This document shows positions 7,345 to 43,990 of a stretch of DNA of 64,000 bases, in pieces. This stretch comes from an uncultured Desulfohalobiaceae bacterium. Its GTDB lineage: Bacteria; Desulfobacterota; Desulfovibrionia; Desulfovibrionales; CAZUBS01. Location of the stretch: the NCBI GenBank assembly GCA_964594925.1, contig CAZQOG010000002.1:389-64388 (forward strand), given 5' to 3'. The position numbers were made by a program, and so were the translations under genes. Positions within the stretch are counted from its first letter, which is position 1, and each line of letters opens with the position of its first letter. Below the pieces are notes generated by a model. The model was not told the origin of the DNA and made no database searches. It was given only the letters and a program-made list of their open reading frames with translations.

Positions 7345-7378
7345 GCTTCGAGCTTCCAGCTTCCAGCTTCGAGCTTCC
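7345..7378. repeat. GAAG-family heptad array, 5 units (gcttcga gcttcca gcttcca gcttcga gcttcc)
   Basis: Read directly. Solo array in the divergent region between the GT2 gene (7227, minus) and the cytidylyltransferase gene (7431, plus). Confidence 0.9.
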
Positions 7379-7430
7379 CCCCCTTGCACCCCGTTTGGAA
7401 AAGGGGCAGTTTCAGGCAAAGAACACCACC

Positions 7431-7961
7431 ATGGGGAGAATCATGAGCCCATCCAGAGATCCGGCCGGAAAGATCCTCACGGTAGCGGCATTCAGGCAGC
7501 TGCGGGGCGCTCTGCCGGCAGAGTCCAGGGTCGTCTTCACAAACGGCTGCTTCGACCTGCTGCATCCCGGGCACGTGGAGTACCTGCACAAGGCCAGGGT
7601 TCTTGGCACCCTCCTGGTCGTGGGCCTGAACTCGGACGCCTCGGTTCGCAGGATCAAGGGGGGGCACAGGCCGGTCAACCCGGAGGGAGAACGGGCCTAT
7701 GTGCTGGCCGGGCTGGAGAGCGTTGACCACGTGCTGCTCTTCGAGCAGGACACCCCGCTGGAGCTGATCAGGGAGGTTCGGCCCCACGTGCTGGTCAAAG
7801 GGGGGGACTGGCCCGTGGCTTCCATTGTCGGGCGTGAAGAGGTCGAGTCCCGGGGCGGTCGGGTGCTGAGCATTCCGCTTCGCCCTGGCTTCTCCACCAC
7901 CGGACTGATCAGCCGCATCCGCGGTTCGCTCACTGCAGAGGGGGCGGCCGGAAAGAGGTGA
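7431..7961 (+). CDS. cytidylyltransferase-like protein, RfaE domain II type (D-glycero-beta-D-manno-heptose-1-phosphate adenylyltransferase-like)
   Basis: ORF track 7395..7961. [19 protein letters not shown]...[10 protein letters not shown]...LVKGGDW is the HxGH nucleotidyltransferase pattern of RfaE-II/HldC. Start uncertain (7395, 7431 or 7443). Confidence 0.8.
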
Positions 7962-8055
7962 GCACTTTGTTTCGGGCCTTCAGGGCAGCACATGTTCTGC
8001 CTCCCGGCCCTCTTTTCAGATTTCGGGCTTCGAGCTTTACCAGAACGGGGGGGGC

Positions 8056-8874
8056 ATGAAGGCCAGGATACTGCACATCTTCCGGAACACGCCCTTTGGC
8101 AGGGAGACGCTGATGCAGTCCGCGCTGTTCGCCGGACGGCTCGGCCTGGACCTGGTGGTCTACGTTCCAAGGGAAAAAAAGTTCCTCATGTACTTCGAGC
8201 ACGACGCGGTGCAGGTGGACCTGGACGATTCCTACCTGCGCATGCCGGAGAGCGCTGACAGGCACGTCAGGGAAATTCTCAAGTCTTTCGAGATCGAGCC
8301 GCACTTTGTTTCACCAGGCTCCTACACTGCTTCGACGCTGCCCGACGTGCCAACGGATTTCGAGTTCATGTGCTGTCCCCGGGCCATCAGCGATCTTTCC
8401 GCCAAAATCGGCCTGGGCTACATCGGCTCCAAGGTGCGGCAGATCCTCAAAAGCGCCCCGTTTCCCGTGCTCATCCCCAGCCCGGTTTTCAAGCCCTGGG
8501 CAAGTGTGAGCGTGCTCTTCGGCGGCTCGGAACCGTCACTTCGGGCTTTGCGGCTCGGGCTCAGGATCAGCCGGGAAACCGGGCTGCCCCTGGATCTGTT
8601 CACACAGGCCGAGGGACGGGAGCGGGGCATGTTCGAGGCGGCCGTGGAGGGGGCCGGGCTCAGCGACCTGCTGGAGCAGCACCTCCGGAGATGGAAGATC
8701 TTCTTCAGCGGCAGCCTGGAGGACAACCTCTATACTGTGGGCCACGACAGCCTGGTGGTGCTGGGGGCGTACGGCCACGGCACCATCAAGACCCTCATGT
8801 TTGGTTCCACCACCGAGACGGTGCAGTCGGTCCTGCCCAACAGCCTGCTCATCGTAGGGCCCGCGGGGCATTGA
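8056..8874 (+). CDS. tandem universal stress protein (UspA-family) domain protein
   Basis: 272-aa ORF. The C-terminal block VVLGAYGHGTIKTLMFGSTTETVQSVLPNSLLIVGP is the USP ATP-binding-type motif. The N-terminal half is a more divergent second copy. Confidence 0.65.
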   Translation: MKARILHIFRNTPFGRETLMQSALFAGRLGLDLVVYVPREKKFLMYFEHDAVQVDLDDSYLRMPESADRHVREILKSFEIEPHFVSPGSYTASTLPDVPTDFEFMCCPRAISDLSAKIGLGYIGSKVRQILKSAPFPVLIPSPVFKPWASVSVLFGGSEPSLRALRLGLRISRETGLPLDLFTQAEGRERGMFEAAVEGAGLSDLLEQHLRRWKIFFSGSLEDNLYTVGHDSLVVLGAYGHGTIKTLMFGSTTETVQSVLPNSLLIVGPAGH

Positions 8875-8887
8875 GAGTTCCCGCGCC

Positions 8888-10636
8888 CTAAGCTTCCCAC
8901 CCACGCTCCTGATAGTACTCGCTGAGCATGGTCTCCATCTCCTGCTCCGTAATGGTGTGCCCGGAGGGGAGCACCTCGCTGGTCAGGCGGCGGGGCAGGC
9001 GGTCCATGTCCGGGGTCAGCCCCTCGCGCAGATTGAAGCGCCTGGTTGCGTCCACTGTGCGTGCGGCTGTTTTTCGCAGCCCGGACGTGTCCAGGTCCTG
9101 CCCGGTGAGGAGTCGGACAAGTGAGGCCAGCTCCTCCCAGGGATAGAGGTCGCGGTAGAAACGGCACAGGATCAGGGAGTCGAACAGGCAGAGCCGGTCT
9201 TCGAAGTCCACGAGCATCGCGGCCTTGCCTTCGACCTGTTGCGGGGAGATCATTCCGGACAGCTCTGGCTTGTAGAAGGTGGTGCGCAGGTGGCAGGCGC
9301 CCCGGGGGCTGGTTCCGTAGGTCAGCCCCATGCCCTTGAGCACCCGCGGGTCGTACCCGGCAGGCTCCATGCCCTTGACGTGCACGGCCTGGTCGGACAT
9401 GCCCCACGAGGCAGCAGCCTGGACAATGCCCCCGGCCAGTACCGCACCCAATCCCTTGCGTCCGGCCATGTCCTTGATCAGGGCGGCGCACCCGTCAGGG
9501 TCATTGTACCCGGCAACAGGTTCGATCTTCCCCTGCAGCCCGGCTTCGATGGCCAGAGCGCACAGGTTGCCCGCGCTGATGGTGTCCAGCCCCAGCCGGT
9601 CGCACAGGTCGTTGAGCCAGGCGATCTCGGCCAGGTCGTCGATCATGCACAACCCGCCAAAGGCATAGATGGTTTCATACTCCGGGCCCTCTATGACCAG
9701 GCCCTTGTGCCGCCCGTGGCTGATCTCGGCCATGCGCCCGCAGGCCATGAAGCACTTCAGGCAGGCGTGGGGGCGCACCCGGTGCTCGGCGTGGTAGGTT
9801 TCCCCGGTCAGACGTTCCCAGTGGTCGCAGGTGCCCTGCTGCCAGTAGCGGGCCGGAAAGGCCTGGGCCGTGTTCATCAGGGCCACCATCATGGTGGTGC
9901 CAAAGCCTTTGTAGGCCTTGACTCCCGGGTTGTCCCGTCCCCGGGACGAAAACTCACGGGCGTACTCCTTGAGCCCGGCGGGGTCGGCAACGCTGCGCTT
10001 GCTGTCGCCGGCAAAGACCAGGGCCTTGAGCTGTTTTGCGCCCATGACGGCGCCGGTCCCGCCCCGGCCGGCACTGCGCCAGCGGTCGTTCTCGATGCAG
10101 GCGAAGACGACCCTGTTCTCCCCGGCCGGCCCGATGACCACCGCACCGGGCCGGCCAAAGCCGGGCCCGGAGGGTGCGAACCTGCGCACGGCCTCTGTTT
10201 CGGCTTCATAGGTCTCCATGCCCCACAGCGCAGTTGCGTCGTGAAAGTCGCACCCGTCGGGATGCACGGCCAGCACCGTGGGCCGCTCGGCAGATCCTGA
10301 GATGACCAGGGCATCGAACCCGGCAGCGTCCATGGCCTCGGGTGTTTTGCCCCCGGCATAGGACTCGGCATAGAGCCCGGTCTGGGGGGACTTGGTGTAG
10401 ACCCCGTAGCGGCTGCCGCCCCAGGCGGGCCCGTTGCAGGCGGGGCCGGTGGCGAAGATGAGCCGGTTCTCCGGGGCCAGCGGCTCCACCCCGGCGGGGT
10501 TGTGCTCGAGCAGCAGGTGCGTGGCCAGCCCCCTGCCTCCCAGCGTGGCCGACAGCAGCTCGTCGGACAGGGGCAGGATTTCGCAGCAGCGGCGGGTCAG
10601 GTCGACCGAGAGGTAGCGTCCGTAGAATCCGTGCAT
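8888..10636 (-). CDS. aor: aldehyde:ferredoxin oxidoreductase family (tungstopterin AOR-type)
   Basis: 582-aa ORF. AOR N-terminus MHGFYGRYLSVDLT...TLGGRGLATHLL...NRLIFATGP, plus later GLDTISAGN and CHLR blocks typical of the AOR family. Confidence 0.9.
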   Translation of the reverse strand: MHGFYGRYLSVDLTRRCCEILPLSDELLSATLGGRGLATHLLLEHNPAGVEPLAPENRLIFATGPACNGPAWGGSRYGVYTKSPQTGLYAESYAGGKTPEAMDAAGFDALVISGSAERPTVLAVHPDGCDFHDATALWGMETYEAETEAVRRFAPSGPGFGRPGAVVIGPAGENRVVFACIENDRWRSAGRGGTGAVMGAKQLKALVFAGDSKRSVADPAGLKEYAREFSSRGRDNPGVKAYKGFGTTMMVALMNTAQAFPARYWQQGTCDHWERLTGETYHAEHRVRPHACLKCFMACGRMAEISHGRHKGLVIEGPEYETIYAFGGLCMIDDLAEIAWLNDLCDRLGLDTISAGNLCALAIEAGLQGKIEPVAGYNDPDGCAALIKDMAGRKGLGAVLAGGIVQAAASWGMSDQAVHVKGMEPAGYDPRVLKGMGLTYGTSPRGACHLRTTFYKPELSGMISPQQVEGKAAMLVDFEDRLCLFDSLILCRFYRDLYPWEELASLVRLLTGQDLDTSGLRKTAARTVDATRRFNLREGLTPDMDRLPRRLTSEVLPSGHTITEQEMETMLSEYYQERGWEA

Positions 10637-10652
10637 GGGGAAACCTTGTTCA

Positions 10653-10885
10653 GTTCGAAGTTCGAAGTCGGAAGTTGGAAGGGAAGACCTCTAACACAAT
10701 GCCGCAACGTTGAGGAGATACTGTTGATTCAGTCCTTTCTTGTTCATCCTTTTCAACGGTTGTTTAAAAACCAAGTTTCAGGCCGAAAGTTCGAAGAAAT
10801 GAGAAAGTGCGTGCATTTTTCTTCATTGCTTAAAATGTCGTTTTGTCTTTCCCTTCCAGCTTCGAACTTCCGACTTCGAACTTTT
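10653..10885. repeat. inverted pair of GAAG-heptad arrays bracketing a 162-nt AT-rich spacer
   Basis: Left arm 10653-10686: gttcgaa gttcgaa gtcggaa gttggaa gggaag. Right arm 10849-10885 is the reverse-complement type (ttccagc ttcgaac ttccgac ttcgaac) and abuts the gabT stop (10888). Arms match at roughly 29 of 34 positions by unit-wise comparison. Confidence 0.85.
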
Positions 10886-10887
10886 AT

Positions 10888-12186
10888 CTAGCGCAAAGCG
10901 CTCAATCCGTCGCGCAGGATGGACAGGCCGCGTTCCAGCTCCTGATCGGTGATGACCAGGGGCATGAGGGTGCGGATGACGTTGCCGTAGGTGCCGCAGG
11001 ACAGGACGATCAGGCCGTGCTCGTGGCACCAGGCCACCAGCTGCTTGGCCGTGTCCGTGGCCGGCTTCTTTGTCTCGCGGTCCTGGACCAGCTCCAGGGC
11101 CAGCATGGGCCCCTTGCCGCGCACGTCTCCGATGACCTCGAACTCCTGCTGCAGAGCGGTGAAGCTTTGCAGCAGCCGTTCTCCAAGGTCCCGGGCCCGC
11201 TCCAGGAGACCGTCCCCCAGGAGAATATCCAGCACGGCCAGGGCGGCCCGGCAGGCCAGGGGGTTCCCGCCGTATGTTCCGCCCAGCCCCCCCACGTGGG
11301 GGGTGTCCATCATTGCGGCCCGCCCGATGACTCCGGACAGGGGAAGGCCCGCAGCCATGGACTTGGCCACGGTGACAAGGTCCGGGGCCACGTTCCAGTG
11401 CTCGATGGCAAAGAGGCTTCCGGTGCGTCCGAAACCGGTCTGGACCTCGTCGATGATCAGGGCGATGGCGTACTTGTCGCAGATGGCCTTGAGCCTGGCA
11501 AAGTACTCCGGCGGCGGGGTCGCAAACCCGCCTTCCCCCTGGATGGGCTCGGCCACCAGGGCCGCGGTCTGCTCGGCGGCCACGTGGGAGATGAAGAACT
11601 CCTCCAGGTAGTCGGCGCAGGCCACGTCGCACCCCGGGTAGGTCAGCCCGAAGGGGCAGCGGTAGCAGTAGGCGTAGGGCATGCGGTAGACCTCGGGCGC
11701 AAAGGGCCCGAACCCGAACTTGTAGGGCTTGACCTTGCTGGTCAGGCTCATGGTCAGCAGGGTCCTGCCGTGGAAACCGTTCTCGAAGCAGATCACGGCC
11801 GGCCTGCCGCTGACGTACCGGGCAACCTTGACCGCGTTCTCCACGGCCTCGGCACCCGAGTTCAAGAGCAGGGTCTGCTTGGGAAAGTCCCCGGGAGCCA
11901 GGCTGTTCAACCGCTCGGCCAGCTCCAGGTAGGGCTCGTACATCATGATGTGGAAGCAGGTATGCAGGAACTTGTCGGCCTGGTCCTTGACCGCCTCCAC
12001 GACCTTGGGGTGGCAGTGACCCACGTTGACCACCCCGATGCCTCCGGCGAAGTCGATGTACTCCTTGCCCTCGGTGTCGGTAATCACGGCCCCGCGGGCC
12101 TTGGCCGCAAAGGCTGGGACCACGTTGAACGGCCCTTTGGGGATATTGTCGGCACGTCGCCCGAGAAGGCTTTTGGTGTCGGACAT
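10888..12186 (-). CDS. gabT: 4-aminobutyrate aminotransferase-type class-III PLP aminotransferase
   Basis: 432-aa ORF with GAGGAG upstream. GFHGRT, DEVQTGFGRTGSLFAIEHWNVAPDLVTVAKSMAAG (Schiff-base Lys) and overall GabT-like length. Confidence 0.85.
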   Translation of the reverse strand: MSDTKSLLGRRADNIPKGPFNVVPAFAAKARGAVITDTEGKEYIDFAGGIGVVNVGHCHPKVVEAVKDQADKFLHTCFHIMMYEPYLELAERLNSLAPGDFPKQTLLLNSGAEAVENAVKVARYVSGRPAVICFENGFHGRTLLTMSLTSKVKPYKFGFGPFAPEVYRMPYAYCYRCPFGLTYPGCDVACADYLEEFFISHVAAEQTAALVAEPIQGEGGFATPPPEYFARLKAICDKYAIALIIDEVQTGFGRTGSLFAIEHWNVAPDLVTVAKSMAAGLPLSGVIGRAAMMDTPHVGGLGGTYGGNPLACRAALAVLDILLGDGLLERARDLGERLLQSFTALQQEFEVIGDVRGKGPMLALELVQDRETKKPATDTAKQLVAWCHEHGLIVLSCGTYGNVIRTLMPLVITDQELERGLSILRDGLSALR

Positions 12187-12207
12187 TATTTCAACTCCTC
12201 ACGTTTT

Positions 12208-12350
12208 CAAGTTCGAAGCAGCCGGCTGCGCCGGAGTTCGAAAGGGGAAGTTCGAAGTCGGAAGGAAAAGGCAGAACGGCGAGAACGCAAAATTCTTATA
12301 CTTTTTCTCCCTTCGAACTTCCGACTTCGAACTTCGAACTTCGAACTTTT
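12208..12350. repeat. inverted GAAG-heptad arrays between the thiolase and gabT genes
   Basis: Right arm 12309-12350 (ccttcgaac ttccgac ttcgaac ttcgaac ttcgaac tttt) includes the thiolase stop codon (12349-12351). Left arm 12245-12265 (ggggaag ttcgaag tcggaag g) contains an 18-nt perfect complement (gaagttcgaagtcggaag). There is also a small palindrome gcagccggctgc at 12218-12229. Confidence 0.85.
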
Positions 12351-13551
12351 ATACTCTTTCTATCACCGTGGCCACGCCCTGGCCGCCGCCGATGCAGGAG
12401 GCGGCGCAGCCGATGCTGCCGTTCTCGCTGTGCAGGATCCTGGCCAGGGTGCCCACCAGGCGGATGCCGGTGGCGCCCATGGCATGGCCCAGGGCCAGCC
12501 CCCCGCCCTTGACGTTGACCCGGTCCATGGGGATGCCGAGATCCGTGACCGCATTGAGCACCACCACGGCAAAGGCCTCGTTGATTTCCCAGAAATCAAT
12601 ATCCGAGGGCTTCAAACCGATTGCTTCCAAGGCCCTGCGGGCCGCGGGGACCGGAGCCAGCCCCATCAGGGTGGGGTCCACCCCGGCAAACCCGATGGAA
12701 CGGACCGTGGCCAGGGGGGAGATTCCCTTTTTCTCGGCGCTTTCACGGTCCATGAGCACCATGGCTGCGGCCCCCGAGTTGAGGGGGGAGGCATTGCCCG
12801 CGGTGATCCCGCCGTGGTCGGGGTCGAAAATGGTCTTCAGCCCGGCCATGCCCTCCAGGGTGGCGTTGTCTCGTACCGCCTGGTCGCGGTCCACGGTCAT
12901 CACGCTGCCGTCGGCCTGGGGCGCGTCCACCGGAATGATCTCCCCGTCAAAGTAGCCCTGCTCCCTGGCCCGGACAGCCAGCTGGTGGGAACGCACCCCC
13001 AGCTCGTCCATTTCCCGGCGGGTGAAGCCGGTCTGCTTCCAGAGCTTCTCCGCGGTTCTGCCCATGACCATGGTGGTGTCCATGTCCCAGTGGGCGTAGC
13101 GCTCCTCGGTGGACAGGGCGGGGTTCATGCTGATGCTGCCTTCCTTGAACAGCTTGGGTCCCATGGGGACCCTCGTCATCTGCTCCATGCCGCAGGCCAG
13201 CACGGTGTCGGCGAACCCGCCGGCAATCTCCAGGAAGGCGGTGTGCAGGGCGGCCATGCCCGAGCCGCACTGCATGTCCAGAAACTTGGCCGGGATGGAG
13301 GCGGGCAGGTTGGCCTGGAAGATGGGGGTGCGCCCGCCAAAGGTCCAGTTCTCGGTCACCCCCAGGGCGCAGCCCACCAGGAAGTCGTCCAATGACTCGG
13401 GGGCGACCCCGGCGCGGGCGAGCACCTCGGGGATGACGGCGGTCAGCAGCTCGTCAGCCCGCAGGGCGTGGAACCAGTCCCTTTCGGGCTCCTGGGGTCT
13501 GGCCCTGGACTGGGCCGTGCGGCCGTAACCGACAATGACAACGTCGCGCAT
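12349..13551 (-). CDS. acetyl-CoA C-acetyltransferase (thiolase II)
   Basis: ORF track 12349..13614, trimmed to ATG 13551 (AAGGAG 9 nt upstream; MRDVVIVGYGRT). C-terminal thiolase signature GLALGHAMGATG...CIGGGQGVATVIE. Confidence 0.9.
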   Translation of the reverse strand: MRDVVIVGYGRTAQSRARPQEPERDWFHALRADELLTAVIPEVLARAGVAPESLDDFLVGCALGVTENWTFGGRTPIFQANLPASIPAKFLDMQCGSGMAALHTAFLEIAGGFADTVLACGMEQMTRVPMGPKLFKEGSISMNPALSTEERYAHWDMDTTMVMGRTAEKLWKQTGFTRREMDELGVRSHQLAVRAREQGYFDGEIIPVDAPQADGSVMTVDRDQAVRDNATLEGMAGLKTIFDPDHGGITAGNASPLNSGAAAMVLMDRESAEKKGISPLATVRSIGFAGVDPTLMGLAPVPAARRALEAIGLKPSDIDFWEINEAFAVVVLNAVTDLGIPMDRVNVKGGGLALGHAMGATGIRLVGTLARILHSENGSIGCAASCIGGGQGVATVIERV

Positions 13552-13650
13552 GTCTAAAAAGCTCCTTGTTGCAGTGACTATGGGAAGATTTGTCTTTGTA
13601 GGGGCACGTTGCACGTGCCCTCTCCCAGTCCCGGCTTCACCACGACACCC

Positions 13651-14919: not shown

Positions 14920-14929
14920 GGTGCCTCTG

Positions 14930-21957: not shown

Positions 21958-22081
21958 CAATCAGTTGAAAAATCCCGGCTGGCTTCGTTGCTGCGGCCAG
22001 GTCAAACCCTCACGTATATGGTATACGCTTCGGACTTGACCAGGCCTTGCGCCTCGCCAGCCAGGTTTTTGAACTGATTGC
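21957..22081. repeat. 125-nt near-perfect long palindrome (extended hairpin) starting in the stop codon of the binding-protein gene
   Basis: Nested complementary blocks: gcaatcagttgaaaaa/tttttgaactgattgc (15 of 16), cccggctggc/gccagccagg (9 of 10), ggccaggtcaa/ttgaccaggcc (10 of 11). Apical stem cgtata-tgg-tatacg (6 of 6). Confidence 0.85.
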
Positions 22082-22099
22082 AATCCGCCCTGCGGGCGA

Positions 22100-22220
22100 G
22101 TTCGAAGTTCGAAGCTCGAAGCTGAGAGCAAGGGAAAGAAAAGAAGCTGAAGCAAGGCTTCAGCAGTATTGCCTCCGGCCGGCCGGTCCTATCGGTCCTA
22201 CAGTGACGGCCGGCCGGAGG
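22100..22220. repeat. GAAG heptads followed by two further hairpins in the same intergenic region
   Basis: Heptads gttcgaa gttcgaa gctcgaa gctgaga (22100-22127). 8-bp stem gctgaagc/gcttcagc (22146-22164). 14-bp GC stem cctccggccggccg/cggccggccggagg (22172-22220) whose loop holds two nonamer-type units, gtcctatcg gtcctacag. Confidence 0.85.
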
Positions 22221-26119: not shown

Positions 26120-27217
26120 ATGACCTTTTCCCTGCCCGCCTACCTCCCCCCCGTCTTTGATGCCGAGCCCCTGCGCAGTGCGCCCACGGCTGTGTTTAAG
26201 CCGGCCCCTGCAGACGGTGTGGCCCCGGACAACTACCACGGCACGTCCATCTTCCCCGAGTATGTCCACCTGCAGCCGGGCCGCTGGGAGCTGATCCGCA
26301 ACTCGCGCATGGACTGCGTCGTGGTGCTGCGGCCGGGGGGCGCTGTGGAGACGGTTGAGTTCAGGAGGCTGCAGAAGGGCGACCAGGTGGCCGTGGGCCG
26401 CACCGAAAGCGGTCAGGACGGAATCCTGGTTCACGACACCGGGTTTGCGGCCCAGGCAGGGGAGGTGGAGAAGTTCGCCTTCCGGACCCGCATCACCCGC
26501 GAGTCCTCATTCTCCATCGACTACGACACCATGTACGATTTGCTGCGCTTCGAGCGGGACAAGGGGCACATCGTCTGGGTGGCGGGGCCGGCCGTGGTCT
26601 TTGACTCTGACGCGCGCAAGGCCTTTGTCCGGCTCATCGAGCAGGGGTTCGTGCACGGCCTGCTGGCGGGCAACGCCCTGGCCGCCCACGACATCGAAGC
26701 GGCCATGTTCCAGACCGCTCTGGGCCAGGGCATCTACCACAAGGTCCCGGCCCGGTTGGGACACTACCACCACCTGGACGCCATCAATGCGGTGCGCCGG
26801 GCCGGCTCCATCCGGGGAGCCGTGGAGCAGGGGCTGATACCGGACGGGGTCATGCGCGCCCTGGAAGAAAAAGGCGTCCCCTCTGTGCTGGCCGGGTCCA
26901 TCCGGGACGACGGCCCCCTGCCGGACGTGATCGGCGATGTGTACCAGGGGCAGGACGCCATGCGCCGGGTGGCCTCACGGGCCACGACCGTCATCACCCT
27001 GGCCACCCAGCTCCACTCCATTGCCACCGGCAACATGACGCCCTCCTACCAGGTCGACGCCGCGGGCCGGGTCAGGCCGGTCTACTTCTTCTGCGTGGAC
27101 ATCTCCGAGTTTGCCGCGGACAAGCTGGCCAACCGCGGCTCCCTGACCGTGCACGCCATCTTGACCAATGTGCAGGATTTCATAGTTACCTGCGCGAGAA
27201 ACCTGACAAACGGCTGA
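26120..27217 (+). CDS. conserved protein with a TIGR00300 (LOR/SDH-associated, archaeal ornithine-cyclodeaminase-like) C-terminal domain; function uncertain
   Basis: ORF track 26111..27217 (GTG); ATG 26120 is likelier. The C-terminal two thirds (LLAGNALAAHDIE...GHYHHLDAINAVRRAGSI...LAGSIRDDGPLPDVI) match my recollection of TIGR00300 proteins. The N-terminal roughly 130 aa do not look like the usual LOR/SDH N-domain. Confidence 0.5.
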   Translation: MTFSLPAYLPPVFDAEPLRSAPTAVFKPAPADGVAPDNYHGTSIFPEYVHLQPGRWELIRNSRMDCVVVLRPGGAVETVEFRRLQKGDQVAVGRTESGQDGILVHDTGFAAQAGEVEKFAFRTRITRESSFSIDYDTMYDLLRFERDKGHIVWVAGPAVVFDSDARKAFVRLIEQGFVHGLLAGNALAAHDIEAAMFQTALGQGIYHKVPARLGHYHHLDAINAVRRAGSIRGAVEQGLIPDGVMRALEEKGVPSVLAGSIRDDGPLPDVIGDVYQGQDAMRRVASRATTVITLATQLHSIATGNMTPSYQVDAAGRVRPVYFFCVDISEFAADKLANRGSLTVHAILTNVQDFIVTCARNLTNG

Positions 27218-27243
27218 GAATCGATTCTCAGCCGTTTGTCAGG
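27202..27243. terminator. 42-bp perfect palindrome overlapping the stop codon (hairpin/terminator candidate)
   Basis: cctgacaaacggctgagaatc|gattctcagccgtttgtcagg has 21+21 nt with no mismatch and centre ATCGAT. The TGA of the upstream gene (27215-27217) lies in the left arm. No U-tract. Confidence 0.5.
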
Positions 27244-27320: not shown

Positions 27321-27416
27321 CTTTTCTTGCTTCGAGCTTTAAGCCTCGAGCCCTATTCTTCTTGCTTCGAGCTTCCAGCTTCCAGCTTCGAGCTTTATTC
27401 TTCTTGTTTCGAGCCA
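27321..27416. repeat. composite GAAG-family heptad region with a higher-order ttcttcttgYttcgagc repeat
   Basis: Read directly: ...ttcttgcttcgagcttt aagcctcgagccct attcttcttgcttcgagcttccagcttccagcttcgagcttt attcttcttgtttcgagcc. Confidence 0.85.
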
Positions 27417-27443
27417 GAGGCGCAGCCGATTCTATTCTTTTTT

Positions 27444-27478
27444 CATCCTTCCGCCCTCATCCTTCATCCTTTTCTTCC
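27444..27478. repeat. CATCCTT heptad array (reverse complement of the AAGGATG family)
   Basis: catcctt ccgccct catcctt catcctt ttcttcc. Overlaps the last codons and stop of the MerR-like gene (…EEKDEG*). Confidence 0.85.
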
Positions 27479-31700: not shown

Positions 31701-31716
31701 GACACTCTCCTTAAAA

Positions 31717-31820
31717 AAGTTCGAAGTCAGAAGCTCGAAGTCGGAAGGACGATGGGTTGCCTCAGGCTTGCAAGGCCTTGTAACAGTGCCTTTCCTTCGA
31801 AATTCGAACTTCCGACTTCC
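31717..31820. repeat. inverted GAAG-heptad arrays between rpmI and rplT
   Basis: Arm 31717-31748: aagttcgaag tcagaag ctcgaag tcggaag g. Arm 31794-31820: ccttcgaaattcgaacttccgacttcc. On the mRNA (minus) strand the second arm is followed by CTTTTTT and then the AAGGAGA SD of rplT. A CGCGCG-agcag-CGCGCG hairpin sits at 31825-31841. Confidence 0.85.
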
Positions 31821-31841
31821 ACCTCGCGCGAGCAGCGCGCG

Positions 31842-34748: not shown

Positions 34749-34763
34749 ACAATAAGGCTCGGA

Positions 34764-37680: not shown

Positions 37681-37704
37681 TGTGGGTGTTCCCCGGAGAT
37701 GATT

Positions 37705-37884
37705 ATGCGTGCACAAAAGAAGACCGTGGTTCAGACCGATCGGCCCATGATCACAGGAGCGGTGAATATACCCTCCAGGAAAAAGTTTTTCAGAAGTATC
37801 AGGATTTCGATTCTCGGATCCTTAGCAGATGGAGATGGGCAGTCAGAACTCCAAGGCTCCGATGACGTGCCGGCCCTCGAATAG
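37705..37884 (+). CDS. hypothetical small protein downstream of feoB (weak call)
   Basis: ORF track 37699..37884. GGAG lies 6 nt before ATG 37705. Basic N-half and acidic C-tail, visibly lower GC than neighbours, no recognisable family. Confidence 0.3.
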   Translation: MRAQKKTVVQTDRPMITGAVNIPSRKKFFRSIRISILGSLADGDGQSELQGSDDVPALE

Positions 37885-37889
37885 AGCGG

Positions 37890-38834: not shown

Positions 38835-39595
38835 TTGATGCGAAACTTGAGAACAAAGGCCTCGGGTGTGATCTGCTCGAAAAAGTAGGCCATTTCCGGT
38901 GCTCTCTTCACCCGGGTGGCAATTTCGAAGCCGTCTGCCGCCCCCTCGACCCTGACTTCCCCACAAAAGTCCTGCAACCCCACGGCATCGGAGAACCTGG
39001 CAAAGTCATCCGGAGAGGGGCCGGCTGCAGGGTCGCCGTACAGCGGGTCCGAAGAGGGGTCGAGCGATTCGCCGTATTCCTGGGCGTAGGCCACAAAGGT
39101 GTAAAAGGTCTCGTCATAGACTGCGGCCTTGATTTCCTTTGACTGGGTGTCCGCAGTGACGTGGCAGGGAACAAAGAATTGGTAGACCAATACCCCCTCT
39201 TCCAGTGCGGCGGAAAAGTCAGTGATCCACCGGGCCTTGAACGGGTCACCGTTGATGTGCGCGTGGGTGTAGTAGTGAAACTCCCGGAAGCCTTCCTTGA
39301 AGAGGGTCTCGATCTCGGCGGCCTCCTGCTTCCTCAAGGCGGCGTTGCGGTCCTTGTCCACCACGTCCAGGATGGACAGGGTGGTCATTTCGTCCAGGGT
39401 CCACTGCTGGCGGAACCCCGCCAGGCCCTGGTCGTCGAAGACAAAGGAGAATGTGCACTCCACAAAGGCGTGGGGATGGGGTCGGCCGGCCTGTGGGGCG
39501 AGGAAAACAAAGAGCACCACGGTTGCTGCAACTTCCAAGAGCAGGAAGGCCGTGCTCTGGTGCACCTTGAACCGGCGGGGCTGGAAAAAAGCCAT
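38831..39595 (-). CDS. DUF1007-family periplasmic protein (usual partner of NicO-type permeases)
   Basis: 254-aa ORF behind AGGAG. Signal-like N-terminus, then HPHAFVECTFSFVFDDQGLAGFRQQWTLDEMTT, typical of DUF1007. Confidence 0.7.
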   Translation of the reverse strand: MAFFQPRRFKVHQSTAFLLLEVAATVVLFVFLAPQAGRPHPHAFVECTFSFVFDDQGLAGFRQQWTLDEMTTLSILDVVDKDRNAALRKQEAAEIETLFKEGFREFHYYTHAHINGDPFKARWITDFSAALEEGVLVYQFFVPCHVTADTQSKEIKAAVYDETFYTFVAYAQEYGESLDPSSDPLYGDPAAGPSPDDFARFSDAVGLQDFCGEVRVEGAADGFEIATRVKRAPEMAYFFEQITPEAFVLKFRIK

Positions 39596-39604
39596 GGGGT
39601 CTCC

Positions 39605-39853
39605 TCAGGCAAAAAAGTCCCGCACCGTCTTCTCCACCAACGACCAGGGGATGAGCAGGGGCTTTTTGATGATCTCGATGTTCACCTCACCATCCCCGAT
39701 GGTGTAGGATCCAACCACGCCCATGGCGGTGAACCGGCCCTGGCTGGCGTCGCCATTGAAAGAGGCGTTCTTTTCCCCGGCCTTCTGTCTGGCCTGGGCC
39801 ACCAACTCCACAGGGTCCTTGTTCAGGGGGGCGGTGATGGTCTTTTTGCTCAT
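39605..39853 (-). CDS. small conserved hypothetical protein (pattern reminiscent of PHA_gran_rgn/TIGR02610 proteins)
   Basis: 82-aa ORF, co-directional and 9 nt upstream of the DUF1007 gene. ...GRFTAMGVVGSYTIGDGEVNIEIIKKPLLIPWSLVEKTVRDFF. Family guess is from memory only. Confidence 0.4.
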   Translation of the reverse strand: MSKKTITAPLNKDPVELVAQARQKAGEKNASFNGDASQGRFTAMGVVGSYTIGDGEVNIEIIKKPLLIPWSLVEKTVRDFFA

Positions 39854-40012
39854 AAGGTGGGGGGATGCATGGTTGTGTTCCCTGGAGATCCCTGTCTATC
39901 ATGGTCGGGTGCCCGGGAAAAGTGGAAGCTGCAGCCAGGAAAGCTCAGTCTTCTGTTGAAAAAACCATGCAGCAGGTCGTTCAATTTTTTCCGGCCTGTC
40001 AAGGAGTCGGTC

Positions 40013-40216
40013 ATGAAAACTGTCAAAGTCAAGGGCATGTCCTGCATGCACTGCGTCAACTCCGTGGTGGAGGCCTTGAGCGCCCTGGAGGGCGTGGGGG
40101 ACGTGAAGGTCGATCTCAGCAGCGGGGAAGCCCAACTGGAGGAGATCAGGCCGGTGGACCAGGAGGAGATCAGAAAAGCCGTCGAGCAGATCGGCTTCGA
40201 GGTGGAGGAGGAGTAG
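40013..40216 (+). CDS. copZ: heavy-metal-associated copper chaperone
   Basis: 67 codons behind AAGGAG, embedded in track ORF 39161..40216. MKTVKVKGMSCMHCVNSVVEAL carries the GMxCxxC HMA motif. Confidence 0.9.
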   Translation: MKTVKVKGMSCMHCVNSVVEALSALEGVGDVKVDLSSGEAQLEEIRPVDQEEIRKAVEQIGFEVEEE

Positions 40217-40219
40217 GGT

Positions 40220-40364
40220 GAAGAAGCTGAAAGATGAAGAAGCTGAAAGCTGAAAGCAAGAGTTCGAAAGGCGAAAAGACGGGAAAAGCGGCAGATGAAA
40301 ATATGCTTTGGCTCTTCTCTTTGCCTTTACTTTGAGCTTTGAGCTTTGAGCTTCGAGCTTCTTG
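40220..40364. repeat. inverted heptad arrays between convergent copZ and copA
   Basis: Left 40220-40270: gaagaagctgaaa gat gaagaagctgaaa gctgaaa gcaagag ttcgaaa gg. Right 40324-40364: cctttac tttgagc tttgagc tttgagc ttcgagc ttcttg. Arms pair at about 6 of 7 per unit. The right arm lies inside the 3' end of copA. Confidence 0.85.
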
Positions 40365-42906
40365 TCCCCTTGGGCTTGAAATAGCGCAGCCTGAGCGCGT
40401 TGGAGACCACGGTCACCGAAGACAAGGCCATGGCCGTGCCCGCGAACATGGGGTTGAGGGTCGGCCCGCCGAAGGCGTGCAGCAGACCTGCGGCCACGGG
40501 GATGCCCAGGGTGTTGAAGGCAAAGGCCCAGAAGAGGTTCTGCTTGACGTTGGCCATGGTGGCCCGGGAGAGCTCGATGGCCGTGAGCACGCTCTGGGGC
40601 TCCCCCTTCATGAGCACCACGTCGCCGCTTTCCACCGCGATGTCGATTCCCGAGCCCATGGCCATGCCCAGGTCGGCCCTGGCCAGGGCCGGGGCGTCGT
40701 TGATGCCGTCCCCCACCATGGCCACGGTCAGCCCTTGGTCCTGGAGCCGCTTGATCTCGTCGGCCTTCTTGTCCGGGAGCACCTCGGCCAGGACCCGGTC
40801 CACCCCGAGATCCCTGGCAACGGCCTCGGCCGTGACCCGGTTGTCACCGGTCAGCATGGCCACGGAGAGCCCCCGGGCCTCCAGCGCGGCCACGGCTTCG
40901 CGTGCGCCCTGCTTGGGCCGGTCCGCCACGGCCAGGACCGCCCACGGGCGGCTGTCCACGGTCAGGTAGAGAGCGGTCTTGCCCTCCCGGGCGAAACCGA
41001 GGGCCGCTTCCGCGGCAGGGCCGGCATCACACCCGGGAATGCCCTCCTCCTGCATGAAGGAGAGGTTGCCGATGCGCACGTCCCGGCCGTCCACCCTGGC
41101 CCGGACCCCGCGCCCGGAAACAGCCTCCAGGGCCTCGGCCCGGGCCGGGGCGACGCCCCGCTTCCTGACCGATTCCACCAGGGCCCGGGCCAGGGGATGC
41201 TCGGAGAGCGACTCGGCGCCGGCTGCCAGGGCCAGGGCTTGGTCCTCTCCTCCCCCGGCTTCCCCGAGCAGGACCACGTCGGTCAGCTCCGGCCTGCCCC
41301 TGGTCAGGGTCCCGGTCTTGTCAAAGACCACCACGTCCAGGTCCCCGGCCCGCTGCAGGGCGGAGCCGGTCTTGACCAGCACCCCGAGCAGGGCCCCCCG
41401 CCCGGTGCCGACCATGATGGACATGGGGGTGGCCAGGCCCATGGCGCAGGGGCAGGCGATGACCAGCACGGCAATGGCGATACGCAGGGAAAAGGTGAAG
41501 GTCTCCCCGGCCCACAGATACCAGGCCAGGCCCGAGGTGACGGAGACGACCATGACCAGGGGCACGAAGTAATAGCTGACCCGGTCGGCCAGATTGGCGA
41601 TGGGGGCCTTGGAGCCCTGGGCCTCCTGGACCATGCGGATGATGCGGGCCAGCATGGTGTCGCCGCCCACCTGCTCGACCCGGATGGTCAGGGCGCCCTG
41701 ACCGTTGACCGTGCCCCCGGCCACCCGGTCGCCCCGCCCCTTGTCCACGGGAAGGGGCTCCCCCGTGAGCATGGACTCGTCCACGGCCGAAGAGCCCTCC
41801 TCGACCACGCCGTCAACCGGGATGCGCTCCCCCGGCTTGACCAGCACCATGTCCCCCCGGGCCACCTCCTCCACGGGCACCACCTTCTGCCCCCCGTCCT
41901 CGAGCAGGGTGGCCGTCTCCGGCCTCAGCTTGAGCAGGGCCCGGACGGCGTCGCCCGTCTTGAGCTTGGAGCGGGCCTCGAAGTACTTGCCCAGGGAGAT
42001 GAGGGCGATGAGCACGGCCGTGGACTCGAAGTAGAGGTCCATGGCATGCTCCACCGGCCGGATCCCCAGGGCGATGAGCACCAGGTTCCAGGTGGAGTAG
42101 ACAAAGGCGGCGCCCGTTCCCAGTGCCACCAGGGTGTCCATGTTGGGGCCGCCGCGCAGCAGGGCGGGGATGCCGCGGGTGTAGAAGAAGCGACCCAGCC
42201 AGACCACAGGTGCGGTCAGAAGGAACTGGGCCAGGGCAAAGGCCAGGGGGGACTGCATGGGGTCGAGCCAGCCGGGCAGGGGCATGCCGAACATGTGCCC
42301 CATGGACAGCACCAGCAAAGGGCCGGCAAAGGCGAACTGCCACACCAGGCGTCGCTGCATGGACTGCAGCTCCTTTCTGGCCTCCTGGCGGCGCTCCTCG
42401 AATCGTCTGGCAGCCGCGGACTGGACGGTTGCCGTGAACCCGGCCTCCCGGATGGCCTCGGTGATGTCGGACAAGCGGACCCGGGTCGGGTCGAAGCGGA
42501 AGGCTCCGCTGTTGTCGGCCAGGTTGACCGAGGCCTCCTCCACGCCGTCAAGGGCGGAGGTGACCCGCTCGATGCGCGAGGAGCAGGCCGCGCAGTGCAT
42601 GCCGCCCAGCTCGAGGCGGACGGTGCGCACCCCTTCTTCGGTGGGAGGCAGGGCAGGACCCTCCAGGGAGAGATCGGTGGAAAACCCCAGCTCCTTGACC
42701 CGGGCCTCGATCTCCTCGGGGGCCAGCTTGTGGCGGTCCCAGGACAGGTCCATGGTCTCGGCGGCCAGGTTGACGCTGACCTCTTCCACCCCGTCCAGCT
42801 TGGACAGGGTGCGCTCGATGCGCGTGGCGCAGGCCGCGCAGTGCATGCCCGAAACAGGCGCCTGGAGCCTGCGGGTGGTGTGGTCGGATGAGTGATCGTG
42901 GCTCAT
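40327..42906 (-). CDS. copA: copper-translocating P1B-type ATPase with two N-terminal HMA domains
   Basis: ORF track 40327..42939; ATG 42906 or 42939. Two GMHCAAC motifs, CPC transmembrane motif ([12 protein letters not shown]), DKTGTLT phosphorylation site, GDGINDAP. Confidence 0.95.
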
Positions 42907-42941
42907 GAACCGCCCTGGGTAAGAGGTGGTGTGGTGCACAG

Positions 42942-42969
42942 AGAATAGCTATCGGGGTGGGGAGGTCAA
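42942..42969 (-). promoter_or_regulatory. candidate sigma70 promoter of copA
   Basis: Minus strand reads TTGACC (42969-42964), 16-nt spacer, TATTCT (42947-42942), about 35 nt upstream of ATG 42906. Consensus match only. Confidence 0.3.
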
Positions 42970-43112
42970 GCGGGGTTGGCCGGAAGGGGAAGGGGTAACG
43001 GACCGGCTGGAAGGATTGGAGTGATCGGACATCAGAGGGCTTTGCTTGACTCCGTGCACCAGAAACAGGCTACACTTGAAGCCTGGACACCACCCCAACC
43101 TGCGGAGGAGAC

Positions 43113-43763
43113 ATGAACGCAACCCAACAGCTCACACGGTCCGTGCTCCTGGTCATCGACATGGAGAACGACTTCCTTCCGGGCGGGGCGCTGGCGGTGC
43201 CTGACGGGGACGCAGTCATCCCGGTCATCAACAGGGTCATGCCCCTGTTCCCTCTGGTCGTGGCCACCCGTGACTGGCACCCCCCGGGGCACATCTCCTT
43301 TGCTTCCCGGCACGAGGGCAAGGAGCCGGGCCAGACAGCCGAGGTTGCCTACGGGGAGCAGGTCATGTGGCCGGAGCACTGCGTCCAGGCCACGCACGGG
43401 GCCATGTTCCCGGAGGAGCTGGATCAGCGGCCCTTCAACCTCATCCTGCACAAGGGCACCAGGAAGGACCTGGACTCCTACTCCGCCTTTTTCGAGAACG
43501 ACAGAACCACCTCCACGGGCCTCGAACCCTACCTGGCCGGGATGGGCGTGGAAAAGGTCTTTGTGTGCGGTCTGGCCGAGGACGTGTGCGTGTCCTTCAC
43601 CGCCCAGGACGCCCGGAGGCTCGGCTTCGAAACCTTTGTCATCGGGGACGCCACCCGGGGCGTGGATATCCCCGAGGGCAACCTGGAAGAGGCGCGGCAG
43701 ACCATGCGGGAGAAGGGGGTGAAGCGGATCAGCTCGCAAGAAGTGGAGGAGATGGCAGGGTAA
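43113..43763 (+). CDS. pncA: nicotinamidase/pyrazinamidase (isochorismatase family)
   Basis: 216-aa ORF behind GGAGGAG. LLVIDMENDFLPGGALAVPDGD...VATRDWHPPGHISF...VCGLAEDVCV (catalytic Cys context). Confidence 0.88.
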   Translation: MNATQQLTRSVLLVIDMENDFLPGGALAVPDGDAVIPVINRVMPLFPLVVATRDWHPPGHISFASRHEGKEPGQTAEVAYGEQVMWPEHCVQATHGAMFPEELDQRPFNLILHKGTRKDLDSYSAFFENDRTTSTGLEPYLAGMGVEKVFVCGLAEDVCVSFTAQDARRLGFETFVIGDATRGVDIPEGNLEEARQTMREKGVKRISSQEVEEMAG

Positions 43764-43766
43764 GAC

Positions 43767-43990
43767 AAAGCTCGAAGTTGGAAGTTCGAAGGGAAGACAG
43801 AAGAAAAAAGGAAACCTTCAGTTTGAGGCGTAGCTGGATCATGTGCCTTGCTTCCAGCTTCGAACTTCGAATTATTCTTCCAACCGCAACCTCTCAAACT
43901 TGCTCTGCCAATCAACCAATCAACCACGCAACAAATAAACCTGCCTTTCCCTTCGAGCTTCCGACTTCCAGCTTCCAGCTTCCAGCTTTC
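43767..43990. repeat. three GAAG-heptad arrays plus a CCAATCAA tandem between pncA and malQ
   Basis: 43767-43796: aaagctcgaag ttggaag ttcgaag ggaag. 43846-43881 and 43944-43990 are the opposite-orientation type (…ttccgac ttccagc ttccagc ttccagc tttc). The last array ends in the malQ stop codon (43989-43991). ccaatcaa ccaatcaa at 43908-43923. Confidence 0.85.

Follow-up and report, generated by a model that had tools for sequence, protein, structure and literature searches.

A lineage-specific family of paired intergenic heptanucleotide arrays in a Desulfohalobiaceae-like bacterium

The window analysed here is a 64-kb stretch of DNA from an uncultured Desulfohalobiaceae bacterium. Protein matches assign it to a sulfate-reducer-type, Desulfohalobiaceae-like genome of the Desulfovibrionales; a Geobacter origin was considered and rejected, the heptads published for G. 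metallireducens being other than GAAG. The window contains housekeeping genes only, with no gene for a mobilising enzyme, and many of its intergenic gaps hold arrays of tandem, head-to-tail 7-nt units in at least three copies, as in the STRR-like heptanucleotide class. Strict period-7 runs of at least three GAAG or CTTC cores number 11 in the window versus 0.02 expected from 100 third-order Markov simulations, while the remaining orderings of the four bases of GAAG give 0-1 such run each. Similarly, GAAGYYSGAAGYYSGAAG with at most one mismatch matches 29 times in the window and not once in 100 dinucleotide shuffles, and TRF recovered the period-7 arrays independently. All 15 arrays listed in the original prediction were found in place; two of these are weak, the entry at 8027-8040 having only two degenerate units and that at 40220-40270 being a decayed AAAGCTG variant. 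Within its first 44 kb, the window has approximately one array every 4 kb. Every array locus falls in the ~13% of the window that is non-coding, and coding overlap is limited to gene 3' ends. The claim that no array lies in a gene body stands overall but needs amending at its edges: the copA ORF extends ~12 codons into 40324-40364, and the stop codons of malQ and the thiolase gene overlap the first array unit.

An arm is ~30-55 bp long. Its three to six tandem GAAGYYS heptads are flanked by an outer cap rich in A (...AAAAG(T/C)TC), which faces the gene, and by a purine-only inner cap, GAAGGGAAAG; both caps recur across arms. The inverted pairing of arms described in the original prediction is indeed frequent and occupies five loci in the window, A to E. 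In pair A, the left arm (10648-10692, plus strand), with the purine form GTTC GAAGTTC GAAGTCG GAAGTTG GAAGGGAAG on that strand, ends 16 nt ahead of the start of the AOR gene, which is on the minus strand; an AT-rich, unique spacer of ~150-160 nt (10693-10842, unstranded) separates it from the right arm (10843-10890, minus strand), which lies immediately 3' of the gabT stop codon and on the minus strand has the purine form TAG ATAAAAGTTC GAAGTCG GAAGTTC GAAGCTG GAAGGGAAAG. Pair B has a left arm (12208-12272, plus strand, purine form on plus) that is broken by a GCAGCCGGCTGC mini-hairpin and is located upstream of the gabT start, and a right arm of 5.5 units (12303-12355, minus strand, purine form on minus) whose outer cap includes the thiolase stop TAA. 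The reported 18-nt perfect match is present and lies in this pair, GAAGTTCGAAGTCGGAAG occurring at 12247-12264 (plus) and 12318-12335 (minus). The left arm of pair C (31711-31752, plus strand) lies between rpmI and rplT and, on the minus or sense strand, forms the 3' arm, after which come U6 and the rplT Shine-Dalgarno sequence; the right arm (31788-31822, minus strand, purine form on minus) is 21 nt past the rpmI stop, after a small GC hairpin. In pair D, the left arm (40217-40275, plus strand), a decayed GAAGAAG/AAAGCTG variant, begins 3 nt past the stop of a copZ-like HMA gene, and the right arm (40318-40366, minus strand) is crossed for those ~12 codons by the copA ORF, which ends at a TAA in the inner cap; a relative's contig ends at this arm. 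Pair E comprises a left arm (43762-43800, plus strand) 3-6 nt past the stop of a pncA-like gene, an inner right arm, E_R1 (43842-43884, minus strand), and an outer right arm, E_R2 (43938-43995, minus strand), whose first unit overlaps the malQ stop TGA. At copZ/copA and pncA/malQ the genes are convergent and the element is the sole structure in the gap. Arms begin at or near stop codons, as had been noted, at distances of 0-6 nt for gabT, 0 for thiolase, 3 for copZ, 3-6 for pncA and 0 for malQ, largely because the elements fill gaps whose length in relatives is no more than 9-77 nt.

Other arrays lie outside these five pairs. A solitary one is in a divergent promoter region (7338-7384, minus strand) and is kept in a 94% relative with two substitutions; the weak two-unit array (8027-8040, minus strand) is 16 nt upstream of the start of a Usp-family gene; and a third, also solitary (22094-22135, plus strand), separates the binding-protein gene of an ABC transporter from the ATPase gene. 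A ~125-nt palindromic element, unrelated to the arrays, adjoins the third. The array at 27321-27416 (minus strand), situated between an ArgZ-like gene (plus) and merR (minus), consists of a 42-nt unit duplicated in tandem. A second heptad family, AAGGATG/CATCCTT, is represented by an array at 6498-6526 (plus strand), solitary in the window, and by a GGATGAA array at 27442-27471 (minus strand) that contains the merR stop codon.

For a transcript of either strand of an arm pair, the predicted structure is an imperfect stem, perfectly paired over 18 bp in pair B, with the unique spacer looped out. The predicted folds of pair B (-66.8 kcal/mol, z -4.6) and pair C (-62.2 kcal/mol, z -3.95) are better than those of dinucleotide shuffles, bearing out the pairing of arms that the original prediction described, and across the five pairs and both strands z ranges from -1.4 to -7.2 against mononucleotide shuffles, with nine of ten folds at -3.0 or below. 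Single arms behave differently: six of eight fold no better than shuffles, and TTCGAA-rich arms alone reach z ~-2.8. The spacers are, as claimed, unrelated, with no similarity among themselves or to the rest of the window. We searched the window for the intrinsic-terminator consensus (a GC-rich stem of 5-20 bp and a loop of 3-8 nt followed by a U tract), and no arm pair matched; arm-pair loops are 40-160 nt long, and a U tract (U6) follows pair C only. We therefore reject canonical Rho-independent terminators as an identity for the pairs. Intrinsic terminators as such are barely enriched in the window (2 versus 5.3, 19 versus 14 and 18 versus 10.8), and Rfam 15 at gathering threshold yielded only a tRNA-Val in the window.

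Comparison with relatives shows how these gaps differ. L152, with a gabT 82% identical, has the same thiolase-gabT-AOR operon with gaps of 29 and 9 nt without arrays, the latter in place of pair A and its spacer, versus 162 and 251 nt in the window, so that the extra DNA arriving with the arms amounts to 130-240 nt. L373, with a PheS 74% identical, keeps the order thrS-infC-rpmI-rplT-pheST-merR with an rpmI-rplT gap of 77 nt. Strict arrays number zero in 20 kb of L152 and zero in 9 kb of L373. They are present in relatives of 94-97% nucleotide identity, where some arms are shared. Thus, one unit family is amplified in this lineage and missing in related lineages, as is characteristic of the heptanucleotide class, in a small sample of one 64-kb window and ~40 kb of relatives. 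Unit number varies between orthologous gaps of strains: pair B in the 94% relative L150 has two units and 18 loop nt fewer and pairs less well, and E_R2 has five units in the window and four in L371. Larger differences are also seen. In L150, the gabT-AOR gap, including the spacer of pair A, is wholly replaced by unrelated sequence; in L371, everything in pair E beyond the malQ-proximal arm, and with it the left arm, is replaced by ~760 nt with two small genes. Where the window has the solitary arm at 6498-6526, L150 carries a purine arm and then, past a 100-nt spacer, a pyrimidine arm, and the GGATGAA family shows an arm-plus-spacer indel between close relatives. Over ~31 kb aligned with the 94-97% relatives, all alignment breaks are at repeat-bearing gaps, and assemblies of relatives break at arrays. 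Inspection of the flanks of pairs A-E showed no target-site duplication, and no empty-site allele with exact borders was seen among the compared relatives, for which reason an insertion cannot, in several cases, be told from a deletion.

The arms of a pair are no more similar to each other than to arms elsewhere (19.3 within pairs versus 17.8, sd 4.8, between loci). We therefore reject an origin of the pairs by local inverted duplication, since the two arms of a pair are not mutual closest relatives. An identical 33-nt core is common to the unlinked arrays at 7338-7384 and 27355-27400, and two other arms agree at 31 of 32 positions. We regard these shared cores as modest evidence that arms may have been copied between loci, chance sharing being non-negligible because there are ~5 unit types and 91 arm pairs. 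A scan of metagenomes with the inner-cap pattern returned diverse organisms, none from the Desulfohalobiaceae-like lineage; thus the inner cap is not diagnostic of the lineage.

Heptamer arrays specific to particular lineages have been on record since 1990, with neither a function nor a mechanism of spread being accepted for them, and the STRR of cyanobacteria are lineage-specific intergenic tandem heptamers without an assigned function (cited in PMC4692102). The GAAG arrays share this character with STRR, but the unit sequences differ, those of heterocystous cyanobacteria being CCCCAGT, TTGGTCA and CAACAGT. The Xanthomonas GGGAATC and Nostoc GGGGAYT repeats are tandem heptamers of mostly ~4 units that are 89-93% intergenic, have the G-rich strand on the coding strand downstream of ORFs, and differ in length and sequence between close species, with no function found; Xanthomonas has 70-75 convergent heptamer pairs per genome, separated by ~28 nt from the ORF that lies upstream (Rehm et al. 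2015, PMC4692102). The GAAG arrays are likewise tandem, intergenic, arranged in convergent pairs and variable between close relatives, whereas their unit sequence differs, they lack G3 tracts and G-quadruplex potential, their density is apparently higher (~1/4 kb, first 44 kb), and their outer and inner caps are recognisable. PMC4679880 provides a further published parallel for heptamer repeats. The original prediction was unaware of such an architecture in deltaproteobacteria; paired tandem sites of 7-9 nt had in fact already been described in Geobacter metallireducens, where classes 1-3 have 3-5 tandem units on opposite strands with variable spacing, lie between operon genes such as proBA, are absent from the sister species and were read by the authors as putative IHF/HU or global-regulator sites (Aklujkar et al. 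2009, PMC2700814). These resemble the GAAG arrays in their deltaproteobacterial-type genome, opposite-strand pairs and purine-first order (8/8 class-3 pairs in the PMC2700814 list), but have the units MTYCTGA, GTTGCTYN and TCTCCGTS. The suggested resemblance to STRR and REP/BIME is supported; the arrays are intergenic, frequently paired and stop-abutting, with unrelated spacers. REP/BIME elements and RAYT-mobilised REPINs are also short, extragenic, single or in inverted doublets of fixed relative orientation, often just past stop codons, hairpin-forming in mRNA and lineage-specific. However, the REP unit forms an imperfect palindrome next to which a tetranucleotide is conserved, whereas GAAG arms are internally periodic and most do not fold alone (z -0.4 to +1.4), and we reject REP/BIME membership because single arms do not fold. 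No RAYT gene (IS200/IS605-like TnpA) is present in the 64-kb window. Drosophila foldback transposons and Streptococcus pneumoniae BOX elements have inverted arms or modules of variable short tandem units and heterogeneous centres, but these are eukaryotic or Gram-positive systems with defined mobile behaviour and their likeness to GAAG arms is an analogy only. The GAAG arrays are thus a new sequence family within the described bacterial intergenic heptanucleotide class, and the sequence comparisons indicate that this family is lineage-specific, unstable and REP-like.

Taken together, we lean towards a model in which the arrays belong to a dispersed short-repeat family specific to this lineage, with members that are tolerated as hairpins and spread by copying. 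The comparisons show that elements were added to short intergenic gaps in the Desulfohalobiaceae-like lineage; in the model, arms would spread by copying, through transposition or gene conversion, rather than by growth in place, and units would be gained and lost via replication slippage. The hairpin probably serves mainly to render the insert tolerable: it would hold the upstream stop codon near the next ribosome-binding site and keep the C/U-rich arm paired. REP-like side effects are likely: the hairpins may hinder 3' exonucleases, serve as a substrate of RNase III and act as weak terminators where genes converge. The original prediction had proposed 3'-end protection, RNase III processing, termination or binding of a dedicated protein as roles; the comparative data point instead to lineage-specific gain and rapid turnover.

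The same stems could exist chiefly as selected RNA elements: U-tract-independent or bidirectional terminators, RNase III sites, or 3' stabilisers by which relative expression is set in operons. REP hairpins of the E. coli malE-malF operon have a stabilising effect on the mRNA upstream, intercistronic hairpins of phage T7 are RNase III sites, and the pairs have imperfect stems (18 bp perfect in pair B) beginning 0-6 nt past stop codons, are the sole structure in the convergent gaps, in pair C end with U6 on the sense strand, and reside in a window where canonical terminators are barely enriched. We nevertheless consider selection for such a role unlikely: the elements are missing in relatives with the same operons, unrelated sequence is swapped in at 94-97% identity, the arms of a pair are not co-adapted, as seen in the poorer pairing of pair B in L150, the terminator scan misses all pairs with their long loops and mostly lacking U tracts, and strong termination upstream of the essential co-transcribed rplT and pheST would be harmful. 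Alternatively, the arrays might be binding sites of a dedicated or global protein, either a nucleoid or IHF-like protein on double-stranded DNA or a reader of single-stranded RNA or DNA whose footprint spans 7 nt, for which cold-shock proteins, S1 and HutP- or TRAP-like rings are candidates. HutP recognises UAG repeats that have a 7-nt period, and the arrays keep a 4-nt core at a fixed 7-nt period in three to six copies. CspB binds heptamer repeats with one protein per heptamer (MacGregor 2015, PMC4679880), and the analogous G. metallireducens sites were interpreted as protein sites (PMC2700814). Binding on one face of duplex DNA is unlikely because a 7-bp period is out of helical phase. Moreover, the unit is constrained throughout its seven positions (GAAG-Y-Y-S), which is the expectation under common descent and not for a core-plus-spacer site; unrelated heptads (GGATGAA) and a nonamer have the same architecture in the same genome; the flanking genes are unrelated in function; and no candidate protein gene is linked to the arrays, making this interpretation quite improbable.

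Two further explanations concern how the repeats arise. If arm, spacer and arm together were a non-autonomous transposon, a MITE or foldback element with heptad TIRs and a transposase encoded elsewhere, this would account for entire modules, spacer included, that are missing in relatives, for the constant head-to-head orientation and conserved outer termini of the arms, and for the assembly breaks; in Drosophila foldback elements, too, inverted tandem-repeat arms enclose heterogeneous centres. MITEs are usually recognised by a shared interior and a target-site duplication, and we think this explanation quite improbable, since the spacers have no mutual similarity, no duplication is visible at pairs A-E, lone arms occur and stay when the remainder changes, the arms of one module are not mutual closest relatives, and the 64-kb window contains no transposase. 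Finally, the arrays might be pure simple-sequence repeats that grew by slippage independently at each locus without inter-locus copying or biological effect. Of the long SSR classes in bacteria, heptamers show the strongest over-representation (Mrazek 2007, as cited by PMC4692102 and PMC4679880), strains differ in unit number, and other heptads are equally common in viral contigs. Yet unlinked loci have caps and unit orders in common, one unit family dominates (11 runs versus 0-1 for other base orderings), orientation is fixed to gene ends with arms facing each other in pairs, and 130-240 nt of additional DNA accompanies the arms; slippage alone is thus very hard to believe.

The original prediction that the purine arm comes first in mRNA sense holds as an orientation but fails as evidence of an RNA-level role: a GAAG...CTTC inverted repeat reads the same on both strands, and purine-first order therefore says nothing on the transcribed strand. 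In other genomes and heptad families, 26 arm pairs are purine-first and two pyrimidine-first, and arrays within 40 nt after a stop codon have the purine form in sense in 35 cases versus 9; before start codons the counts in other genomes are 8 purine and 4 pyrimidine, with unreliable start calls, and do not confirm a pyrimidine form there. In the GAAG family, the purine strand is the sense strand of the gene whose stop precedes the arm, and therefore two arms in a gap always face each other purine-first. This handedness is seen in five heptad families (GAAG, AGGA, GGAA, GGATGAA and the G. metallireducens class-3 unit) and likewise in one nonamer family. Among ordinary inverted repeats, 5' arms are purine-biased ~60:40, a figure on which we do not rely because the loci had been selected for purine-rich arrays. 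In low-GC genomes, to which we restricted the coding/intergenic test by spanning ORF because spurious ORFs make the longest-spanning-ORF test uninformative above 55% GC, arrays are mostly outside long ORFs (29% inside versus 80% for random positions). GAAG arrays are among the listed matches in many phyla, but a universal GAAG motif is rejected by controls in viral contigs, in which GAAGYYS has 29 loci and composition-matched heptads have 39, 62 and 43; being no more common than such heptads, GAAG is not special. Rho avoidance as an explanation for solitary arrays is unsupported, two of three in co-directional gaps (6498-6526 and 8027-8040) having the pyrimidine form in sense; on the same question, Rehm et al. 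(2015, PMC4692102) give 30% versus 35%.

It is tempting to speculate, although we hold it rather doubtful, that heptad-arm hairpins form one general class of self-folding intergenic insert, spread across phyla and sharing a universal handedness set by a conserved cellular machine. Rho loading on exposed C/U-rich RNA may impose this handedness, as may the way ribosomes behave at stop codons and at ribosome-binding sites, or a protein whose footprint is 7 nt. If so, the elements would be modular inter-cistron insulators that resist transcriptional polarity. The strand-symmetric purine-first rule spans unrelated units and phyla and could bear on Rho polarity and translational coupling. The unusually high density of arrays in this genome, together with relatives that supply natural gain, loss and replacement alleles in the well-understood rpmI-rplT and thiolase-gabT-AOR operons, makes the GAAG family of interest here. 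Finally, we note that the arrays break metagenome assemblies and lengthen ORF calls, as in copA, and thus matter for annotation.

The tandem heptads that the original prediction had listed, with the unit GAAGYYS on one strand (purine form) and CTTC on the other (pyrimidine form), are all present where it had placed them, and Tandem Repeats Finder recovered the same GAAG arrays; the weak entries are 8027-8040, with two units, and 40220-40270, a decayed variant. The arrays are not a product of chance. The 64-kb window holds 11 runs of at least three GAAG/CTTC cores at a 7-nt period versus a mean of 0.02 in third-order Markov simulations, the same four bases in other orders give 0-1 run each at this period, and 2.5 GAAGYYS units with one mismatch allowed match 29 times in the window versus 0 in 100 dinucleotide shuffles. 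An Rfam search of the window returned only tRNA-Val and no match at the arrays. The G+C content of the window is 65%, and the products of gabT, copA, and pheS have best matches that are 96-100% identical, one of them labeled Desulfohalobiaceae bacterium, the more distant matches being from Desulfovibrionales.

With neighboring genes assigned by Pfam, pairs A (10648-10890) and B (12208-12355) lie within a minus-strand thiolase-gabT-aldehyde:ferredoxin oxidoreductase (AOR) operon, pair C (31711-31822) between rpmI and rplT in the infC-rpmI-rplT-pheST operon, pair D (40217-40366) between the convergent copZ-like and copA genes, and pair E (43762-43995) between the pncA-like and malQ genes, also convergent; of the solitary arrays, the one at 7345 lies in a divergent promoter region, the one at 22100 within an ABC transporter operon, and the one at 27321 in the gap that separates an ArgZ-like gene from merR. 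No transposase or similar gene was found within the 64-kb window. Genes make up 87% of the window in a GC3-based map and every array locus falls in the remainder, in agreement with the claim that none lies inside a gene body, except that the copA ORF enters its array for about 12 codons. These last codons (40327-40366) are encoded by the heptads, so that both the C-terminal tail of the ORF and its stop codon come from the array; a 98% relative has the tail as well. The idea that arrays begin at stop codons is borne out, with a purine-form arm 0-6 nt past the stop of gabT, thiolase, copZ, pncA, and malQ, and is largely explained by the elements occupying the gaps between a stop codon and the next ribosome-binding site.

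The arms are polar. In the purine sense, an A-rich outer end (ATAAAAGTTC, TTAAAAAAGTTC, ACAAAGCTC, TGAAAGCTG), oriented toward the gene, is followed by 3-6 units of GAAG plus TTC, CTC, TCG, CTG, or TTG and by an inner end made of purines alone (GAAGGGAAAG or GAAGGAAAGG). The spacers of 43-162 nt are each unique, as expected if the pairs are not copies of one MITE; that of pair E contains an octamer array, (CCAATCAA)x4, at 43908-43941. Arms of the same pair are no closer to each other than arms of different loci (mean local score 19.3 versus 17.8, sd 4.8), arrays 7345 and 27321 have an identical 33-nt core in common, and 31/32 positions agree between the left arm of pair A and the right arm of pair B. 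Because within-pair similarity is not higher and cores are shared across unlinked arms, these comparisons favor copying of arms from locus to locus, as opposed to growth in place or an inverted duplication at the site; the weight is modest, since there are only about five unit types.

Two more distant relatives keep the operons and lack the arrays. In L152 (gabT 82% identical), the same operon has gaps of 29 and 9 nt versus 162 and 251 nt in the window, and in L373 (PheS 74% identical, 60% G+C) the order thrS-infC-rpmI-rplT-pheS-pheT-merR is kept with a rpmI-rplT gap of 77 nt and no array in 9 kb; the elements were therefore gained in the lineage of the window. Among relatives at 94-97% nucleotide identity (L150, L151, L371), array 7345 is retained with two substitutions, pair B is shorter by two units and 18 loop nucleotides, and of pair E only the malQ-proximal arm is kept in L371, with 4 units versus 5, so that unit number does vary between strains, a check that had been proposed. 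Beyond this arm, L371 has ~760 nt in which an HTH_3 gene and a partner ORF of 93 aa (8450-9047) lie between malQ and the pncA-like gene, two genes that resemble a toxin-antitoxin module. In L150, the whole gabT-AOR gap (8984-9242) lacks the GAAG pair; an unrelated sequence takes its place, with an inverted repeat of its own, TCATTCCCGCGCAGGCGGGAATCCAG ... CTGGATTCCCGCCTGCGCGGGAATGA. Another heptad family (GGATGAA/TTCATCC) is solitary in the window, as a pyrimidine array at 6498-6526 and at 27442-27471, where the merR stop codon falls within the array; at the site of the former, the 94% relative L150 (13527-13660) carries a full module in which 100 nt of spacer separate the purine arm from the pyrimidine arm. 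In this family, stop codons (TGA) fall within units. Over the ~31 kb compared with the 94-97% relatives, all breaks in otherwise colinear alignments are at repeat-bearing gaps. The L371 contig ends (12593) within an array and L372, another close relative, is a 1595-nt contig of the pheS region, suggesting that the repeats fragment short-read assemblies. Separately, the ~125 nt at 21960-22085, after the binding-protein gene, form a palindromic MITE-like element, of which a copy 77% identical follows the AOR gene in L150 (10986-11109), at a locus where the window has only ~13 nt.

In all five pairs, the plus strand reads GAAG array, spacer, CTTC array, and the minus strand reads the same. The purine arm is first in mRNA sense, as the original prediction held; being strand-symmetric, the arrangement is purine-first whichever strand is transcribed and is thus no evidence for a role in RNA. 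Among the matches listed for other genomes and families, 26 pairs of inverted partners at most 150 nt apart have the purine arm first, versus 2 with the pyrimidine arm first. The L150 GGATGAA pair is purine-first, as is a nonamer pair in the window at 56935-57066 ((ATAGGACCG)x5, ~45 nt, (GGTCCTATC)x5), lying between znuA-like and phospholipase D-like genes; a short copy of the nonamer lies at 22186-22201 beside array 22100. The class-3 pairs of Geobacter metallireducens are likewise purine-first (8/8; Aklujkar et al. 2009, PMC2700814 supplement), and the Xanthomonas heptamer pairs are termed convergent (Rehm et al. 2015, PMC4692102). Of 44 listed matches in which the array lies at most 40 nt past the stop of an ORF (120 aa or longer), 35 have the purine form in gene sense (p = 1e-4), the same preference as stated by Rehm et al. 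(PMC4692102). The converse expectation, of pyrimidine-form arrays just before start codons, fits pairs A-C, 6498, and 8027 in the window; for other genomes, where start calls are unreliable, this was not confirmed among the matches listed (8 purine versus 4 pyrimidine). A fixed arm end against the nearest gene would give a purine-first pair in all four gene orientations. Candidate causes are Rho loading on the exposed C/U-rich arm, to which the solitary arrays of the window lend no clear support, stop-codon context, and avoidance, ahead of true starts, of purine runs that resemble Shine-Dalgarno sequences.

Most single arms are not predicted to self-fold (z -0.4 to +1.4). The five pairs are predicted to fold on both strands, with z of -1.4 to -7.2 and 9/10 folds at or below -3.0 against mononucleotide shuffles, consistent with the proposed pairing of arms; against dinucleotide shuffles, pair B has z -4.6 (-66.8 kcal/mol) and pair C z -3.95 (-62.2 kcal/mol). 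The GAAG pairs lack the defining features of an intrinsic terminator, and we reject this assignment. Adjoining array 22100 on the minus strand, antisense to the transporter operon, is a canonical terminator-like hairpin, GCTGAAGCcttGCTTCAGC then TTCTTTTCTT (22146-22164), and a perfect 42-nt palindrome (21+21, CCTGACAAACGGCTGAGAATC/GATTCTCAGCCGTTTGTCAGG) without a U tract contains the ArgZ-like stop codon at 27202-27243.

Altogether, the original observation stands and its interpretation is supported in part: we lean somewhat toward a model whereby the GAAG arms are a lineage-specific, unstable, REP-like heptad-repeat family that moves between gaps, slips, and persists through fold-out. In this model, arms would spread from intergenic gap to intergenic gap, slippage would expand and contract them, and facing arms would fold the insert aside in the transcript, allowing the family to persist, with effects on mRNA ends of the REP kind as a likely by-product. 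Through the purine-first rule and the naturally occurring alleles, the old question of array role becomes open to experiment.

Of the suggested likenesses, to the STRR repeats of cyanobacteria and to REP/BIME elements, the first points to the right class. The family has the defining features of the published bacterial heptamer-repeat class; REP membership is rejected because single arms are not palindromic, and MITE membership because the insertions have no interior in common and no target duplication. What is new is the GAAG family as a member of a class already known. Among the long simple repeats of bacteria, heptamers show the strongest over-representation (Mrazek 2007, as cited in PMC4692102 and PMC4679880). 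The Xanthomonas GGGAATC repeat has ~185 arrays per genome, with 70-75 convergent pairs; the arrays are 89-93% intergenic and ~28 nt from the upstream ORF, they vary between species, and no function was found for them (PMC4692102), and Beggiatoaceae carry TAACTGA repeats (MacGregor 2015, PMC4679880). For deltaproteobacteria, where the original prediction was aware of no description, tandem 7-9 nt units are published as paired sites at variable spacing within operons of G. metallireducens, and the authors guessed that these bind IHF/HU-like regulators (PMC2700814).

When 185,579 species genomes were scanned for runs of four GAAGYYS, the matches listed came from many phyla. In viral contigs, the GAAGYYS pattern has 29 loci and composition-matched heptads have 39 (GAGA), 62 (AGGA), and 43 (GGAA); since matched heptads are equally frequent, the wide spread reflects the general heptamer excess of bacteria and not a universal GAAG signal. 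At loci below 50% G+C among the matches listed, most arrays lie outside long ORFs: ORFs of 450 nt or longer span 29% of arrays versus 80% of random positions. In one unrelated metagenome contig (L306, 2400-2480), a CTTCGAA/CTTCGGA array lies within the 5' end (leader) of a prepilin-type ORF, and in L297 and L323 a small reverse-strand ORF lies between a GAAGGGA x10 array and a CTTC array spaced 366 nt apart. The same inner cap recurs on GAAG arrays in contigs of 41-52% G+C (L300, L304, L318, L334, L335, L337, L341, L355, and L358) from the SL_3KL/SL_8KL sediment metagenomes, where a different organism may have its own GAAG family.
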